Source: an uncultured archaeon (GTDB lineage Archaea > Thermoplasmatota > Penumbrarchaeia > CAZUZU01). Taken from it: a DNA stretch of 20,000 bases. A program made the position numbers and the translations under genes. The DNA is taken from the NCBI GenBank assembly GCA_964624865.1, contig CAZUZU010000002.1, forward strand, positions 18,347 to 38,346, given 5' to 3'. Below the pieces are notes generated by a model. That model was given only the letters and a program-made list of their open reading frames with translations, searched no databases and had not been told where the DNA came from. This document shows, piece after piece, positions 1-13,375 of this stretch. Every line of letters begins with the position of its first letter. Positions within the stretch are counted from its first letter, which is position 1.

Positions 1-3000
1 AAACCGATGCCGGCAACCTGTCCAACGGGTCCGGCTCTGGAGCCTTGCTTCAAGCATCCCCCCAGGCCGATGAAGGGCTGTATGTCAGGGCCACAAGCGG
101 AGGAATATCCGTCCAGGTAGTATTCGATATTGTACCGGACGAACTGCATCATATAGAGATCGATCCTCCGTCAGCAAACGTGGAGGCGGGCAAATCACTG
201 CCCTTCAACGCCACTGGTTACGATCAATTTGATAATCCCGTTGCAGCATCTTACGTATGGGATACCAACATCGGGGACATGGTCGGTAATGTACTCTACG
301 CCCGGACGGAGGCGGGGGATGGTTGGGTAAGCGTATCATCGGGCCAGATATCCGCCCAGGCCGCCGTGACCATCTTACCCGGTCCGCTGGCCAGCATGGC
401 CATCGATCCGGTTTACGTAGAGGTGGATGCGGGGGGGACCCAGGCCTTTTCAGCCCGTGGTTACGATCAGTACGGTAATGAAGTGGAGATAGGCCCGGAC
501 TGGAAGACCACCGTGGGAGAAATGGAGGGCAGCGTTCTACAAGCCGTGACATATATCACCACCGGCCGCGTGATCGCCTACGTGGGCGAGACCAATGCCA
601 CCGCTGTGGTGAAGATAGTACCCGGCCCCTTGGCTTCCATCTTGGTAGAGCCGAATGAGATCACCCTTGAAGTTGGGGACAGCATGCCCTTCGAGGCCAC
701 CGGTGAGGACAGCTACGGCAACGACGTGTCCATCGACCCGGTGTGGAGCAGCAACCTGGGTTCCATGGACGGTAATGTTCTGACCGTGGAGGATTACTTG
801 GAGGAGGGCTATGTAAGCGCCGCGGCGGGCAATGTCACAGGTTCGGCAACGGTCTACGTGGTGTCACCGTCAACCGGGCTGAGGTTCACCGGTGCCGTGT
901 CCGATGTTACCTTGGAGGAGGACGCGCCACCTTATACCTGGGACCTGACCCTCATGGCCGAGGACGATCTGGATCCCCAGAGCAAGCTGAAGTGGTACCT
1001 TTCGGAGGCCGATTCCTCCTTATATGCAGTGAGCGGTGAAGGGACCACGGTACTGATAATCACGCCCGAGCCAAATATGTTCGGCAACAGCATGGTCTCC
1101 TTGTGGGTGAGCAATTCCAGGGGTAACACCCGGTCCGCCCAGGTATGGATAAACGTTACCTCGGTGAACGACAGGCCTTACTTCTTCCCCAAACCACCGG
1201 ACCTTACGGTTACCATGGATAAATCCTACACCTTCGATTACAGCCCCTATCTACAGGATATCGACCATGACCTATCCCAGCTTTCCCTGTCCGTGGACGA
1301 CACCCATGCTTCCGTGGACGGACACAAGGTCACTTACCTGTATCCCGCTTCGATGGTCGGGAAAAGGGTGTACGTGGAATTGAACCTGAGTGACGGCATC
1401 GGCAGCACCGGATGGGTCCTGGGGATAAATGTGTCGGAGGACAATGTTCCAGTCTTAAGGAGGGAGCTTCCCGACGTTACCATGCGCGAGGGGAGCAGCA
1501 AGTACGGCGTGTTCGACCTTGACGATTACTTCTTCGACCCGGACGGGGATTCCATCTACTTCTCCTACGGTTATACCCATATCACCATCGACATACATGA
1601 GAACAACAGCGTAGACCTCCATGCGGAGAGCAGCTGGAACGGCGTGGAAAGGGTGACCTTCAGGGCCACCGACCCCAGCGAAGCTCTGATAGAGGACATC
1701 ATAACAGTAACCGTTCTGGCGGTCAACGACCCGCCCGACATCTCGGGGGTGCCCGATCTGGTGGTTCATTACGGTGCGGACTATTATTTCGACCTCTCCC
1801 CATATATATTCGACGAGGACAATGATACAGCCGAGCTGAGGCTTCTCTTCGAGGATATGGGTATGGGTAATAGGGCCTTGTCCCAGTATGTACAGGCCTC
1901 TTCCGCCAATAATCTGGTGATGATGATCAACTATCCCCAGGAATTCCTTGACGAGACATTCACCTTGAGGATAACGGTCACCGACGGTGTTGACACGGCT
2001 TATCAGGATATAGATATAACCGTGTCCGAGGATTGGCCTCCCGAATTAATAACGGAGTTCCCCGACGTTACCTTCTACGAGGACGAATACCTTGCCAATC
2101 ATTTCAACGTGAATGATTATTTCACGGACAGGGACAACGACACTTTGTTCTACACCTACGGCAACGAACACGTAAAGGTCATCATTTACGATAACGGAAG
2201 CGTGGATTTCTTTGCGGACGAGAACTGGTTCGGCGTTGAGATAATAACGGTGAGGGCAACCGACAATTCCAGCGCCTTGGTGGAGGACGTGATAAAGGTC
2301 ACCGTTCTTCCCGTCAACGATCCCCCGGTCATATCCGCGGTTCCCGATCAGGAAGGGGTGATGGATGAGAGCTGGATGTTGGACCTTGCCCCCTATCTCC
2401 ACGACGTGGACAACAATGTGTCCGAGCTGGAGATCTCTAGCAGTTCCGATTACGTTACCGTTTCGGGCACCGTTCTGATGTTTCGGTATCCATCCGGCAT
2501 GAGGAACGACGTGGTCTACGTTTCGGTAAGGGACCCTAAGAACGCCAACGCCACGACTTCCTTCAACGTTACCTTGGCCAAGAAGGGGGTGGCCCAAGGA
2601 TCGAAGCCCGAGTCGTCCCAGTATCTTTGGTATATGGCACTGTTGATCCTGCTCATCCTGCTGGCCATACTCGGATACGCTTATGCCAAAGGGAGGTACG
2701 AGGTGAGCGAGGCGTTCCTGATATACAGCAACAACGGGCTCCTGATAGCTCACAAGTACAAAGGGGAAAAGGAAGACACGGAGATGGATATAAAGAGCAG
2801 CATGCTCACCGCTGTCCAGGACTTCGTCAGCGACGCTTTCGAAGAGGAGGGTGACGATGAGGGCGGGTTGAAGGTGCTGGAGTTCGGTGCCAAGAAGATA
2901 ATGATAGAGCATGGCAAGTCCGTTTACATAGCTGCCGTGTTCAAGGGAGGGACCTGGAGGTTGGGCCCGAGATTGAAGGCTTTAGTGAGGGAGCTGGAGG

Positions 3001-3104
3001 AGGAATACGGTGAGAAATTGGAGAAATGGGGCGGGGACGAAAGTGACCTCAAGGGTGCGGACAGGTACCTGGCCCGCTTGTTGATGATGAAGTCGGAGAA
3101 ATAA
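1..3104 (+). CDS. Large surface protein, 5'-truncated by the window: Ig-like repeats, cadherin-like repeats, one TM helix, C-terminal cytosolic roadblock/longin-like domain
   Basis: Frame stays open to the left window edge (upstream codons read TDAGNLSNGSGSGAL before the TTG at 45). Three 81-aa repeats of the type GPLAS.xx.P....V.aG....F.A.GyDqyGN. Later repeats with NDPP, DLSPYxxDxDxD, ENWxGVExxTxRATD. TM segment YLWYMALLILLILLAILGYAY, then YEVSEAFLIYSNNGLLIAHKY...SSMLTAVQDFVSDAF. Confidence 0.85.
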   Translation, partial: TDAGNLSNGSGSGALLQASPQADEGLYVRATSGGISVQVVFDIVPDELHHIEIDPPSANVEAGKSLPFNATGYDQFDNPVAASYVWDTNIGDMVGNVLYARTEAGDGWVSVSSGQISAQAAVTILPGPLASMAIDPVYVEVDAGGTQAFSARGYDQYGNEVEIGPDWKTTVGEMEGSVLQAVTYITTGRVIAYVGETNATAVVKIVPGPLASILVEPNEITLEVGDSMPFEATGEDSYGNDVSIDPVWSSNLGSMDGNVLTVEDYLEEGYVSAAAGNVTGSATVYVVSPSTGLRFTGAVSDVTLEEDAPPYTWDLTLMAEDDLDPQSKLKWYLSEADSSLYAVSGEGTTVLIITPEPNMFGNSMVSLWVSNSRGNTRSAQVWINVTSVNDRPYFFPKPPDLTVTMDKSYTFDYSPYLQDIDHDLSQLSLSVDDTHASVDGHKVTYLYPASMVGKRVYVELNLSDGIGSTGWVLGINVSEDNVPVLRRELPDVTMREGSSKYGVFDLDDYFFDPDGDSIYFSYGYTHITIDIHENNSVDLHAESSWNGVERVTFRATDPSEALIEDIITVTVLAVNDPPDISGVPDLVVHYGADYYFDLSPYIFDEDNDTAELRLLFEDMGMGNRALSQYVQASSANNLVMMINYPQEFLDETFTLRITVTDGVDTAYQDIDITVSEDWPPELITEFPDVTFYEDEYLANHFNVNDYFTDRDNDTLFYTYGNEHVKVIIYDNGSVDFFADENWFGVEIITVRATDNSSALVEDVIKVTVLPVNDPPVISAVPDQEGVMDESWMLDLAPYLHDVDNNVSELEISSSSDYVTVSGTVLMFRYPSGMRNDVVYVSVRDPKNANATTSFNVTLAKKGVAQGSKPESSQYLWYMALLILLILLAILGYAYAKGRYEVSEAFLIYSNNGLLIAHKYKGEKEDTEMDIKSSMLTAVQDFVSDAFEEEGDDEGGLKVLEFGAKKIMIEHGKSVYIAAVFKGGTWRLGPRLKALVRELEEEYGEKLEKWGGDESDLKGADRYLARLLMMKSEK
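135..863 (+). repeat. Three tandem 81-aa (243-bp) Ig-like repeats within the surface protein
   Basis: Repeat starts at ORF residues 31 (PDELHHIEIDP), 112 (PGPLASMAIDP) and 193 (PGPLASILVEP), exactly 81 aa apart; a preceding partial copy ends at residue 30. Confidence 0.8.
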
Positions 3105-11205: not shown

Positions 11206-11254
11206 CTTTGATCGACTTTACAGTAACCTTACCACATGAAGAAAAAACAACAAG

Positions 11255-11264
11255 CATATAAAAG
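11255..11264 (-). promoter_or_regulatory. Putative TATA box for the his operon
   Basis: CTTTTATATG on the minus strand, about 50 nt upstream of the hisG start region. Confidence 0.45.
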
Positions 11265-11719
11265 AACTGCGTTAGCGTCCGGGGGGCTGTAGAAATTTTT
11301 CTGCTTTCTTTACAAGGTCGGGGATTATATCCAAGATAACTATAATGGCACATATCAAAAGAAAGCGGTCACCGTGATGAAACTCCAAGAGGGCCAACAG
11401 TAAATTACGCTCGAAGATAATTATCATCTAAACAGCTCGTCGATCTCGTCGTCCACCGACTTCGGCCCGGCCCTCCGTGATACCGCCGCACGCCATGGGT
11501 ATCGAGGTGGAGATGAACTCTTCCCGACCAAGGTCGGAGATCACGCTCTCATGCCAGTAAAATACCTGCGTACTCGCTCGCTTCCACGCATCCGCCCATA
11601 TAGGCTTCGCCTCCATGCCTAGCTAATACGCACAACGCTATATAGTGTTTTGCTGCGGGTTTTGATCATCAAGTTCTCGTTGCTTGCGGTGTTGTCCCAG
11701 AGGGGGTAGTCACCGAATA

Positions 11720-11731
11720 ATATAAATATCA
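11720..11731 (+). promoter_or_regulatory. Putative TATA box for 5S rRNA
   Basis: AT-rich AATATAAATATC about 25-30 nt upstream of the deduced 5S 5' end. Confidence 0.5.
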
Positions 11732-11752
11732 AATTATGTATTAACCTCAGAT

Positions 11753-11978
11753 AGTAGACGGCCATAGCAGTGGGGAAACACCCGGTCTCATACCGAACCC
11801 GGCAGTTAAGCCTGCTGCGTAATATCTGGTACTATGATGCGAGAGCTCATGGGAAGGATACCCTGAAAGGGGCTTGGTCCTTTGGCCTAGGTAAGGAGTC
11901 CAAGTTGACACCTTCGGGTGACTTCTTGGGTAAACCTTACTGCCTGAAAGCCAAAGGTTCCTTGGTATGCTGTCTACT
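11753..11978 (+). rRNA. rrf: 5S ribosomal RNA, apparently with an internal expansion segment; total about 226 nt
   Basis: Core GCCATAGCAGTGGGGAAACACCCGGTCTCATACCGAACCCGGCAGTTAAGCCTGCTGCG is typical archaeal 5S. Helix II AGCAG 11766-11770 / CTGCT 11812-11816. Hairpin CTATGA 11832-11837 / TCATGG 11847-11852. Helix I AGTAGACGG 11753-11761 / CTGTCTACT 11970-11978 (9 bp). Exact ends uncertain by a few nt. Confidence 0.88.
11861..11967 (+). other. Expansion segment of about 107 nt inside 5S rRNA
   Basis: Nested helices: CCTTTGGC 11879-11886 / GCCAAAGG 11950-11957 (8 bp), GTAAGG 11891-11896 / CCTTAC 11935-11940 (6 bp), CCAAG 11900-11904 / CTTGG 11925-11929, CACC 11909-11912 UUCG GGTG 11917-11920; also CCC-TGAAA-GGG at 11861-11871. 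Confidence 0.8.
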
Positions 11979-12014: not shown

Positions 12015-12311
12015 ATGATAACCACTGGACTTGACCGGGAGATAGAGCTCTTTTGCAGGCATCTGAACGTGCTGACCAATCTCAAGGAAAACCAACCCCT
12101 GGGCATCATCAAGCTGTCCCAGCAACTGGGCCTGCCCCAGCACAAGGTCAGGTACTCCCTCCGTCTTCTGGAAAGGGAGGGGCTGGTGGTGCCTACCCCG
12201 GGAGGGGCCACCCTCGGTCCCAAGGCGGACGAGTTCTACAACGAGATTCCTGTGGTCCTAAGGGACTACTACGAAACCTTTAAGGACTTCGAGGACTTAA
12301 TCGCCGAATGA
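12015..12311 (+). CDS. Small winged-helix/HTH DNA-binding protein
   Basis: 98-aa product; GIIKLSQQLGLPQHKVRYSLRLLEREGLVVPTPGGATLG fits a winged helix. ATG at 12015 preferred over the track start at 11967, which lies inside the 5S gene. Confidence 0.7.
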   Translation: MITTGLDREIELFCRHLNVLTNLKENQPLGIIKLSQQLGLPQHKVRYSLRLLEREGLVVPTPGGATLGPKADEFYNEIPVVLRDYYETFKDFEDLIAE

Positions 12312-13375
12312 CCATGCCGAAAAATCGTTTGAGACTGCAATTGACCTCCTATATGCCGGTATTTCTCACCATCCTTGTTTCCCTTCCCCTTGTCTACATG
12401 GTATACGCATCGGAGTTCTTCATCCAGGCCACAGTATTTGCTGAAAGGGGGACGGGAGGAGAGGCCGCCGGGGCCGGCATCCTCAACGCGGTCATCCTTG
12501 TGGTTGCGGCTCTCATCGGGGGACTGTTCATCTTCCTGCTGGTCAAGATGAAGAGGGAGGGCGTCCTCCAGGTCATGTTCATGGGCGCCTTTTTATTCGT
12601 TCTCACCGTTATCTCCTTTTACTTCATCACCAGCTCCCTCCGTATCCTGTACCGGCCTTGGACCACCTATCTCTACCATACCTCGATACTGCCTCTTGGC
12701 CTAACGGCGATGTACTCGGTGGTCCTGGCATTACCCGGCTTCGACCTGATCATGCTGTTCTTTTCATTTTTATTCGCCGTCTACATAACCGCCCAGATTT
12801 TCAGGAACCGTAGGATAATGGAGTGCAACACCGCCCTAATAGTTCTGGCCAGCATGACCGGCGCCTTTCTTGCAGTGCTACTACCCATATACACCGCCGT
12901 TTTTCTTTTGATCCTTCTATCCATCTACGATATCTATGCCGTTTTCAAGGGTCCCATAAAGAGAATAGCCGAGATGACCCACGGCTCAGACGCCACTCCC
13001 TCTCCCCGCCCCAAGGAATCGTCACATGAGCCTGTGCAGCCGGCTCCAAGCATGGACGAGTACATAGAGGAGGACGATTTCATGTCCCGGCTCACCTATA
13101 AAACGCCTTTCTGGGACCTGGGCCTGGGTGACCTGGTGTTCTACTCCATGCTGGGAGCCACCGCCTTCATGCATGGCGCGCGGCACTTTCCCGCCCTTGG
13201 TCTTCTTGCTCCCTGGATCCCCTTTGTCGCCGTGTCCCTGGGGGTAATGGCCGGCCTGGTCCTGACCATCAAGCTCCTGGAGCGCAATTACATGATGCCC
13301 GGCCTGCCCATATCAACCTTCCTGGGGCTGGGTATACTCGCCGCAGTCCATCTTGCCTACCTTTGGTTTAGGTAA
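12308..13375 (+). CDS. Polytopic membrane protein, unknown function
   Basis: Multiple hydrophobic segments (VFLTILVSLPLVYMVY, AVILVVAALIGGLFIFLLV, VMFMGAFLFVLTVISFYFI, TALIVLASMTGAFLAVLLPIYTAVFLLILL and others); starts overlapping the preceding stop. Confidence 0.75.
   Translation: MTMPKNRLRLQLTSYMPVFLTILVSLPLVYMVYASEFFIQATVFAERGTGGEAAGAGILNAVILVVAALIGGLFIFLLVKMKREGVLQVMFMGAFLFVLTVISFYFITSSLRILYRPWTTYLYHTSILPLGLTAMYSVVLALPGFDLIMLFFSFLFAVYITAQIFRNRRIMECNTALIVLASMTGAFLAVLLPIYTAVFLLILLSIYDIYAVFKGPIKRIAEMTHGSDATPSPRPKESSHEPVQPAPSMDEYIEEDDFMSRLTYKTPFWDLGLGDLVFYSMLGATAFMHGARHFPALGLLAPWIPFVAVSLGVMAGLVLTIKLLERNYMMPGLPISTFLGLGILAAVHLAYLWFR

Follow-up and report, generated by a model that had tools for sequence, protein, structure and literature searches.

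The window analyzed here is a 20,000-nt stretch of contig CAZUZU010000002.1, from an uncultured archaeon of the Thermoplasmatota, and it contains a 226-nt 5S ribosomal RNA (rRNA) gene at positions 11753-11978 on the plus strand. A his operon, transcribed from the minus strand, lies on one side of this gene, and a small helix-turn-helix (HTH) gene followed by a gene for a presenilin-type protease lies on the other. An earlier note, made from the sequence alone, had read the core as 5S rRNA and estimated the gene at about 226 nt, and both claims were borne out. The core matches RF00001 at 11754-11871 with 64.1 bits (E = 1.1e-11; Rfam cmscan), against a gathering threshold of 38, and helices II to IV are paired at 93-99.7% across the family of expanded 5S genes described below.

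The 3' boundary of the gene lies well beyond the end of the Rfam match. Helix I is formed by the 5' end of the gene, AGUAGACGGC (11753-11762), and GCUGUCUACU (11969-11978), which together make 10 bp including one G-U pair; the true complement of the 5' end, GCTGTCTACT, occupies the same positions, 11969-11978. Helix I can be closed only with this 3' end and not with the short end aligned by Rfam, at 11862-11871. The earlier note was thus right that the partner of helix I is located further downstream (by ∼105 nt) and that the gene contains an internal expansion, but its 9-bp helix is 10 bp long at 11969-11978, and its expansion of about 107 nt measures 105 nt (11861-11965) in A1, an alignment of 36 full-length sequences. 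The whole 226 nt is predicted to fold with −91.9 kcal/mol (z = −3.8), and 0/200 dinucleotide shuffles were equally stable. The length called by Rfam was ∼118-120 nt in the window and in all of the related loci tested (11/11), in agreement with the earlier expectation that standard annotation would end the gene early. Haloarchaeal expanded 5S genes are misannotated in the same way, with the 3' end called too soon (PMC7812874). The gene and its parts are as follows, with column and pair numbers referring to A1.

11720..11727, plus strand: putative TATA-like box ATATAAAT, 26-33 nt upstream of the 5S 5' end, read from the sequence
11753..11860, plus strand: 5' part of the 5S core (RF00001, 64.1 bits; A1 and its pair counts)
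11753-11762, plus strand: helix I 5' strand, followed by helices II/III and loop C
11819-11827, plus strand: helix V 5' strand, followed by loop E and by helix IV (11832-11852)
11856-11860, plus strand: distal helix V 3' strand
11861..11965, plus strand: 105-nt expansion segment in the helix V 3' strand, 4 nt past the loop-E GGGAAG (columns 111-221)
11861..11872, plus strand: hairpin a, CCC-UGAAA-GGG plus G (pairs 111-125, 112-124, and 113-123 conserved)
11862..11871, plus strand: false 3' end inside hairpin a, aligned by Rfam as the helix I 3' strand with mostly non-canonical pairs
11873-11878 and 11879-11886, plus strand: 5' strands of helices b0 and b1, respectively (partners at 11950-11965)
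11887..11889, plus strand: asymmetric internal loop, 5' side, CUA (CTAG invariant in 36 sequences)
11890-11896 with 11935-11941, plus strand: helix b2, with a bulged A at 11897 and an AAA bulge at 11932-11934
11898-11904 with 11925-11931, plus strand: helix b3, followed by tandem U-U mismatches
11907-11912 with 11917-11922, plus strand: helix b4, capped by a UUCG tetraloop at 11913-11916
11942..11949, plus strand: asymmetric internal loop, 3' side, GCCUGAAA (alignments A1 and A2; covariance model alignments)
11950-11957 and 11958-11965, plus strand: 3' strands of helices b1 and b0, respectively
11966..11968, plus strand: proximal helix V 3' strand, UAU, pairing with 11819-11821 (pair 71-222; helix 100% paired)
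11969..11978, plus strand: true helix I 3' strand GCUGUCUACU and end of the gene, with a short T-rich stretch next to it

Genes homologous to the expanded 5S gene were found in at least 40 places besides the window (L007 and 39 metagenome contigs). One genome per species of GTDB was scanned with a 5S core pattern; among the matches listed, at least one expanded 5S (L007, in a genome labelled uncultured Thermoplasmatales archaeon) occurred amid many canonical 5S genes of Thermoplasmata. Metagenomes were scanned with a pattern in which the core is followed by a gap of 135-165 nt and then by AYGCTGTC; this pattern is blind to the frequency of canonical 5S genes in the clade. The scan returned 39 contigs, and a homologous insertion of 99-107 nt was present in 39/39. 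A stricter pattern, built from insert motifs common to the window and L007, had 0 matches in metagenomes and was too specific, as most family members carry GGACTAGG or GACCTAGG where this pattern demanded GGCCTAGG. Most of the expanded genes form a main family, whose helix I is GGUUUGACGG; divergent subtypes are represented by L135 and by the pair L129/L139.

In related lineages, the expanded gene takes the usual place of a 5S gene. Two contigs (L157 and L148) carry complete operons in the order 16S-tRNA-23S-5S with the expanded gene as the 5S, and in five others (L161, L132, L007, L163, and L167), it comes immediately after the 23S 3' end (Rfam). As read from these assembled contigs, the expanded gene is the only 5S of the operon. 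The complete operons, at L157:8393-13395 and L148:3360-8362, belong to the main family, and because their 23S genes are of normal length (∼2925 nt), the expansion is specific to the 5S. The expanded 5S genes of the divergent pair (L129:1131-1353 and L139:8874-9096) do not adjoin a 23S gene. Their arm is without the UUCG hairpin and is the form nearest the Halococcus insert, and their 5S core is nearest a Methanomethylophilaceae 5S (83% identity).

Clade names used here are the labels of the sequence records. Homologs with 80-85% identity to the PurB protein encoded on L161 occur in many metagenome-assembled genomes (MAGs) that bear the label Thermoplasmatales archaeon, some of them on contigs as long as 1.9 and 2.3 Mb, which places the main family in an uncultured clade that is well sampled. 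We suspect that this clade may be Marine Benthic Group D (Thermoprofundales). The 5S begins abnormally in two of the metagenome loci, both from sample WOR8 (L163:13335-13716 and L144:10174-10358): in L163, CCGAACCCGG comes immediately after the 23S 3' end, with ∼40 nt of the 5S missing, and L144 stops at the same point. These odd ends are probably due to assembly collapse, the alternative being a truncated gene. On the minus strand of L157, positions 2434-2510 gave a borderline match to SNORD36 (31.5 bits against a threshold of 30, E = 0.96), which may be an archaeal C/D small RNA (sRNA).

The fold of the insert was evaluated by scoring a hand-built structure on A1. Standard base pairs were found in 90.5% of the cells, compared to 33-47% when the 3' partners were slid by 1-3 columns, and 40 pairs were changed on both sides among the 36 sequences. 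On four of five measures, 0/500 shuffles reached the observed values; the fifth, the number of further standard pair types, was unexceptional and was reached by 85/500 shuffles. Covariation extends from the base of the insert to its apex. It is seen in hairpin a (pair 114-122: UA in 16 sequences, CG in 6, and AU in 1), in the basal helix (pair 139-203: CG 18, AU 13, GC 3, and UG 2), and in the upper-arm helices (11890..11941), which are 99.2% and 89.6% paired and include 13 pairs changed on both sides. The earlier note had named a lack of conservation or covariation in close relatives as one of the outcomes that would refute an expansion, and the reading as an expansion survived that test in the 36 sequences. 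Judged from this alignment, the insert is established to be an RNA module that is under selection, folds independently, and occupies a fixed site in helix V.

The same alignment places the insert within helix V. The distal helix V pairs 73-110 and 76-107 both covary, and the proximal pairs 69-224, 70-223, and 71-222 form in every sequence, with covariation at 71-222 (AU 31, UA 3, and GC 2); column 72, on the strand opposite the insert, is left unpaired. This arrangement implies a predicted four-way junction of distal helix V, proximal helix V, hairpin a, and the long arm, with the core intact. As to the individual helices, the CCC/GGG hairpin and the UUCG cap listed in the earlier note were recovered, whereas its succession of 8, 6, 5, and 4 bp gives way to ∼5+8+7+7+6 bp supported by covariation. 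The minimum free energy structure of the single sequence, which the earlier list follows, pairs the middle of the arm differently.

Other identities for the insert or its parts were considered and rejected. Searched alone against Rfam, the insert had no family (best E-value, 3.2). A K-turn (L7Ae site) in the conserved loops was discarded because the tandem G-A/A-G pairs are neither present nor conserved (A1 and A2), and an embedded C/D-box sRNA because CUGA occurs in few members only and a C box in none. A stem that would close the insert in the window (AUACC/GGUAU) is not conserved: L132, for instance, breaks it and keeps pair 71-222 as G-C. The 8-9 nt (CYCGGUAC) that precede the helix I 3' strand in the main family repeat the 5' strand of helix V and loop E, CUCGGUAC (columns 75-82 and 217-224; window 11825-11832 and 11961-11968). 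This repeat could be a footprint of the origin of the insert, or it could be due to chance.

The insert is missing from a close relative. The best homolog of the presenilin-like protein encoded downstream of the window's 5S gene (54% identity) is on L001, a short Logan contig that shares with the window the gene order 5S, HTH gene, and presenilin gene. The 5S of L001 (L001:1-95) is of canonical length and ends in ...GGGAAGCACGGUUCGCUGUCUAC, and the helix I 3' strand GCTGTCTAC stands at the end of both the L001 and the window 5S. The window reads GGGAAG-GAUA, 105 nt, and UAUG-CUGUCUACU, and L001 is without the 105 nt. Since the canonical 5S of L001 has the same helix I 3' strand in the absence of the segment, the 105 nt (11861-11965) interrupts the helix V 3' strand. 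Among the other contigs fetched for their presenilin or HTH homologs, none carries a 5S gene, and the neighboring 5S is kept only in L001.

The window gene has a mosaic appearance in this comparison. It shares its exact helix I 3' strand with L001, and its helix IV/V region (window 11819-11860, columns 67-110), like the arm, is much nearer to the operon-linked main family than to L001. Over the overlapping core, the window has 84% identity to the main-family consensus and 74% to L001. The gamma domain and arm of the window gene could have been acquired by recombination, or the pattern could reflect fast compensatory change.

The surroundings of the gene fit a stand-alone 5S in an organism that is not a halophile. 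Rfam and tRNA scans of the 20-kb window detected no tRNA and no rRNA other than the 5S. The putative TATA-like box at 11720..11727 lies at the distance expected of an archaeal promoter and would imply a stand-alone transcription unit. Within the gap of ∼550 bp between hisG and the 5S gene (11206-11752), there is no convincing open reading frame (ORF) and no Rfam match at E ≤ 1. The cytoplasmic proteins encoded in the window have isoelectric points (pI) of 4.85-9.2 and balanced charge and, thus, are not those of a salt-in halophile; the genomic context, which the earlier note had described as unlike that of a halophile, is that of a Thermoplasmatota MAG without a halophile-type acidic proteome. 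The presenilin-family (PF01080) intramembrane protease homolog, just downstream of the 5S-HTH pair, is encoded at 12308-13375, and a 1019-amino-acid, repeat-rich, probably surface-anchored protein is encoded at 45-3104.

Large expansions of archaeal 5S rRNA have been catalogued in 15 genomes only, all of them Halobacteria, by a 2021 survey that screened RefSeq genomes and databases but not metagenomes and that noted that further cases might be concealed in poorly annotated genomes (PMC7812874). The haloarchaeal insertion is 108 nt long, is located between positions 104.1 and 105, and is known only from Halococcus, Halalkalicoccus, Halomarina, and Halodesulfurarchaeum (PMC7812874). It has been shown for Halococcus morrhuae that the insertion is retained in the mature RNA, where cryo-electron microscopy reveals a flexible four-way junction (PMC7812874, PMC7530397). 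We found no report of an expanded archaeal 5S outside Halobacteria in the searchable full-text literature. The H. morrhuae 5S expansion itself is reportedly to be credited to Luehrsen 1981. The site, the size, and the basal architecture of the window's expansion agree with the Halococcus type; what is new is the phylum, the apical half of the arm, the non-saline context, and the breadth of the distribution.

To compare the two types, haloarchaeal sequences were taken from the supplement of the survey's preprint. Both insertions interrupt the helix V 3' strand 4 nt past the loop-E GGGAAR (positions 104.1/105), and the site in the window, which the earlier note had put near core nt 108, coincides with the one given by Stepanov & Fox (PMC7812874). 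The flanks read GGGAAG-GAUA/insert/UAUG-CUGUC in the window and GGGAAA-ACUG/insert/(G)UUCG-CCGCC in H. morrhuae. The size is likewise similar, as the note had supposed: the insert has 105 nt in the window and ranges from 99-107 nt across the family, compared to 106-110 nt in haloarchaea by the boundaries used here. The order of the elements is also the same, with a hairpin of 4-5 bp (CCUC-GCAA-GAGG in Halococcus, hairpin a in Thermoplasmata) followed by a long arm with an asymmetric internal loop. The 5' side of this loop is CA in Halococcus, CGA in the other haloarchaeal genera, and CUA in Thermoplasmata. The 3' side, GCCUGAAA in the window, is GCUUGAAA in the main family, GCUUUAAC in L129/L135, GUUACAAC in Halococcus, and GUCGAC in the other haloarchaeal genera. 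The loop has 2-3 nt (C-N-A or C-A) opposite 6-8 nt in both types, and its 3' side starts with G and ends with AA(C/A). The helix past the loop starts with GG in both types, comprising 6 bp that covary in Halococcus and the 7 bp of b2 in Thermoplasmata. A four-way junction with an undisturbed core is implied for both. In addition, both are misannotated as ∼120-nt genes because the first part of the insert looks like a 3' end, and both are patchily distributed among relatives. The types differ in their hosts (Thermoplasmatota with a non-halophilic proteome compared to Halobacteria), in the helix V 3' strand, which is one nucleotide shorter in Thermoplasmata, and in the apical half of the arm, which in Thermoplasmata consists of a regular helix that carries tandem U-U mismatches and is capped by a UUCG tetraloop but in haloarchaea forms an invariant irregular domain.

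Two covariance models, both with rough E-values from a shortened calibration, connect the types through the divergent subtypes. The first (R1) was built from 10 haloarchaeal inserts only and was run over 82 kb with filters off. It matched L139 with 29.0 bits (E = 6.6e-5) and L129 with 27.9 bits (E = 1.2e-4), in both cases at full length and exactly on the insert. L135 was matched, again at full length and exactly on the insert, with 15.1 bits (E = 0.22), and the best unrelated match in the same 82 kb scored 13.8 bits. Over 679 kb of other loci with default filters, R1 gave nothing above 14.9 bits; because default filters lose its L129/L139 matches, only the filters-off run is informative. The second model (R2) was built from the window and the main family, leaving out the three divergent sequences, and matched L135 with 42 bits (E = 1.9e-9), L139 with 25.5 bits (E = 1e-4), and L129 with 20.2 bits (E = 3.5e-3), above a background of ≤11.7 bits. 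Both models match the L129/L139 subtype at the same coordinates. In global pairwise alignment, L129 resembles the H. morrhuae insert with z = 3.1, and 1/500 dinucleotide shuffles was as good. Because both models meet in L129/L139, a transitive chain leads from the window and main family to L135, from there to L129/L139, and on to the haloarchaeal type, and on the strength of this chain, we consider it fairly likely that the inserts of Thermoplasmata and haloarchaea share an origin. The cores of the expanded 5S genes are of the Thermoplasmata type, with 72-84% identity to canonical Thermoplasmata 5S and 66-72% to the Halococcus core, so it would be the module that is shared rather than the whole gene.

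We conclude with good confidence that window 11753-11978 is the 5S rRNA gene of an uncultured, non-halophilic Thermoplasmatota archaeon with a 105-nt expansion at the Halococcus-type site; in this interpretation, the arm is probably retained, and the insert fairly likely belongs to the haloarchaeal family. Several observations weigh against this conclusion. The closest syntenic relative, L001, is without the insertion, and the arm is thus dispensable on evolutionary timescales. The expanded 5S of the window stands outside any rRNA operon. We infer that the Thermoplasmata arm is kept in the mature 5S by analogy. With respect to kinship, an nhmmer profile of the Thermoplasmata insert found no match in the haloarchaeal inserts, R1 gives ∼9 bits or no match on the main family and misses the window insert, and the window resembles the H. 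morrhuae insert weakly (z = 2.1, with 14/500 shuffles as good). The link to the haloarchaeal inserts, as drawn from these models, is therefore transitive and not direct.

The last group of observations is what would be expected if a permissive site in helix V had acquired arms separately in Thermoplasmata and in Halococcus, and if the two arms resembled each other through convergence. The lack of detectable primary-sequence similarity, the failure of the haloarchaeal model to reach the window or main family, the apical halves (a UUCG-capped regular hairpin compared to the irregular, invariant Halococcus domain), and the core identity of just 66-72% between Halococcus and the expanded Thermoplasmata genes all agree with this alternative. 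However, convergence would also have to account for an insertion point that is common to the nucleotide on the 5' side, for similar lengths (99-107 nt compared to 106-110 nt), and for the same order of short hairpin, long arm, asymmetric loop, and 6-7 bp helix starting with GG. It would, moreover, have to explain why the L129/L139 subtype is significantly matched by both R1 and R2 and why L129 aligns to H. morrhuae with z = 3.1. We regard an independent origin as possible though doubtful.

A retained expansion segment must also be distinguished from an intron or other intervening sequence, which would be spliced at a bulge-helix-bulge (BHB) motif or excised without religation to leave a mature 5S of ∼120 nt or two fragments. 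If exactly 11861-11965 were removed, the resulting helix V would be near-canonical, the one irregularity being a bulged A (A1). Archaeal rRNA introns exist, although we know of no 5S intron that has been described. Those spliced at BHB motifs resemble the window insert in being extra segments of an archaeal rRNA gene that are missing from relatives. Stepanov & Fox pointed out that beyond Halococcus and Thermoanaerobacterium, sequence alone does not exclude excision (PMC7812874). Nonetheless, a search within ≤12 nt of both junctions revealed no conserved BHB motif; low-stringency matches in 9/36 sequences were at chance level, were located at inconsistent positions, and would not yield a 5S on splicing. 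Covariation ties the junction nucleotides to the helix V 5' strand and not to each other, and all 105 nt, including the apical helices and loops, are constrained, which is unexpected for a small intron without an ORF. The probable haloarchaeal homolog, furthermore, is kept in the mature RNA. Because constraint spans the whole insert, the junction covaries with helix V, and a conserved BHB is absent, a retained expansion segment is favored, and excision appears unlikely.

The stand-alone position of the window copy raises another alternative, namely, that it is a silent or secondary, displaced 5S and that a canonical 5S elsewhere supplies the ribosome. There is no 23S alongside and no other rRNA in 20 kb. 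In bacteria, moreover, expanded 5S genes often coexist with normal ones, and one stand-alone expanded copy looked displaced. But unlinked rRNA genes are usual in Thermoplasmata, and syntenic L001 keeps a canonical 5S at the same stand-alone locus, which indicates that the 5S gene normally resides here in this lineage. Every family-invariant position is intact in the window copy, the TATA-like box is at the expected upstream distance, and the expanded gene is the only 5S of the operon in related lineages. A silent copy is, in our estimation, improbable. That the long gene is an assembly or chimera artefact is scarcely credible: the window does derive from a metagenome-assembled contig, and two contigs from one sample (L163 and L144) have odd or truncated 5' ends, but the same architecture with compensatory substitutions recurs on 41 independent contigs from many samples and assemblers.

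For the retained expansion segment, the following picture can be proposed. The segment leaves the helix V 3' strand 4 nt past loop E and folds on its own into the short hairpin and the long irregular arm. By analogy with H. morrhuae, the arm would stay in the mature 5S and project from the central protuberance of the 50S subunit on its solvent side, leaving the binding surfaces of the core undisturbed. The invariant loops (CUA/GCUUGAAA and the A and AAA bulges) may contact a putative protein or RNA partner. The arm may have been gained or lost by recombination between 5S genes, as is suggested by its presence in the window and absence from L001 and by its presence in Halococcus and absence from Halobacterium. 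Recombination between 5S genes was proposed by Stepanov & Fox within Halobacteria (PMC7812874). The window gene may itself be a recombinant, with a helix I like that of the insert-less L001 and a gamma domain and arm like those of the operon-linked family. In the broadest interpretation, toward which we are evenly divided, the Halococcus insertion would be a branch of one RNA module common to two archaeal phyla, either ancient or horizontally moved through recombination between 5S genes, that is the sole form of 5S in an abundant, uncultured sediment clade labelled Thermoplasmatales and whose loops mark a partner on the central protuberance.

Expansions of other rRNAs share some of these properties. 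The bacterial 5S expansions (Thermoanaerobacterium and relatives, the Desulfotomaculum group, Halanaerobiales, and Pseudoalteromonas; PMC7812874) are likewise independent helical insertions in an otherwise normal 5S and are often overlooked by annotation. They differ in being located at other sites (e.g., the helix III bulge at 52/53), in comprising 13-109 nt of unrelated sequence, and in often coexisting with normal copies. The large-rRNA expansions of eukaryotes and Asgard archaea (Penev 2020, PMC7594248) are also peripheral helical outgrowths that leave the core intact, following the accretion pattern, but they reside in the 23S/28S rRNA, whereas the 5S arm nearly doubles an RNA of 120 nt and is conserved in sequence within its clade.

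The presence of this arm on at least 41 independent contigs, in non-halophilic Thermoplasmatota and at the same nucleotide, indicates that 5S expansion is much more widespread than reported; on many of these contigs, the expanded gene serves as the 5S of the rRNA operon. Standard 5S annotation cuts these genes short throughout the clade. A diverse alignment with real covariation is now available to define the structure of the arm, and whether the Halococcus insertion goes back to shared ancestry or to transfer can now be tested directly. Because the same kind of arm occurs in non-halophilic Thermoplasmatota, any link of the arm to high-salt adaptation is removed.

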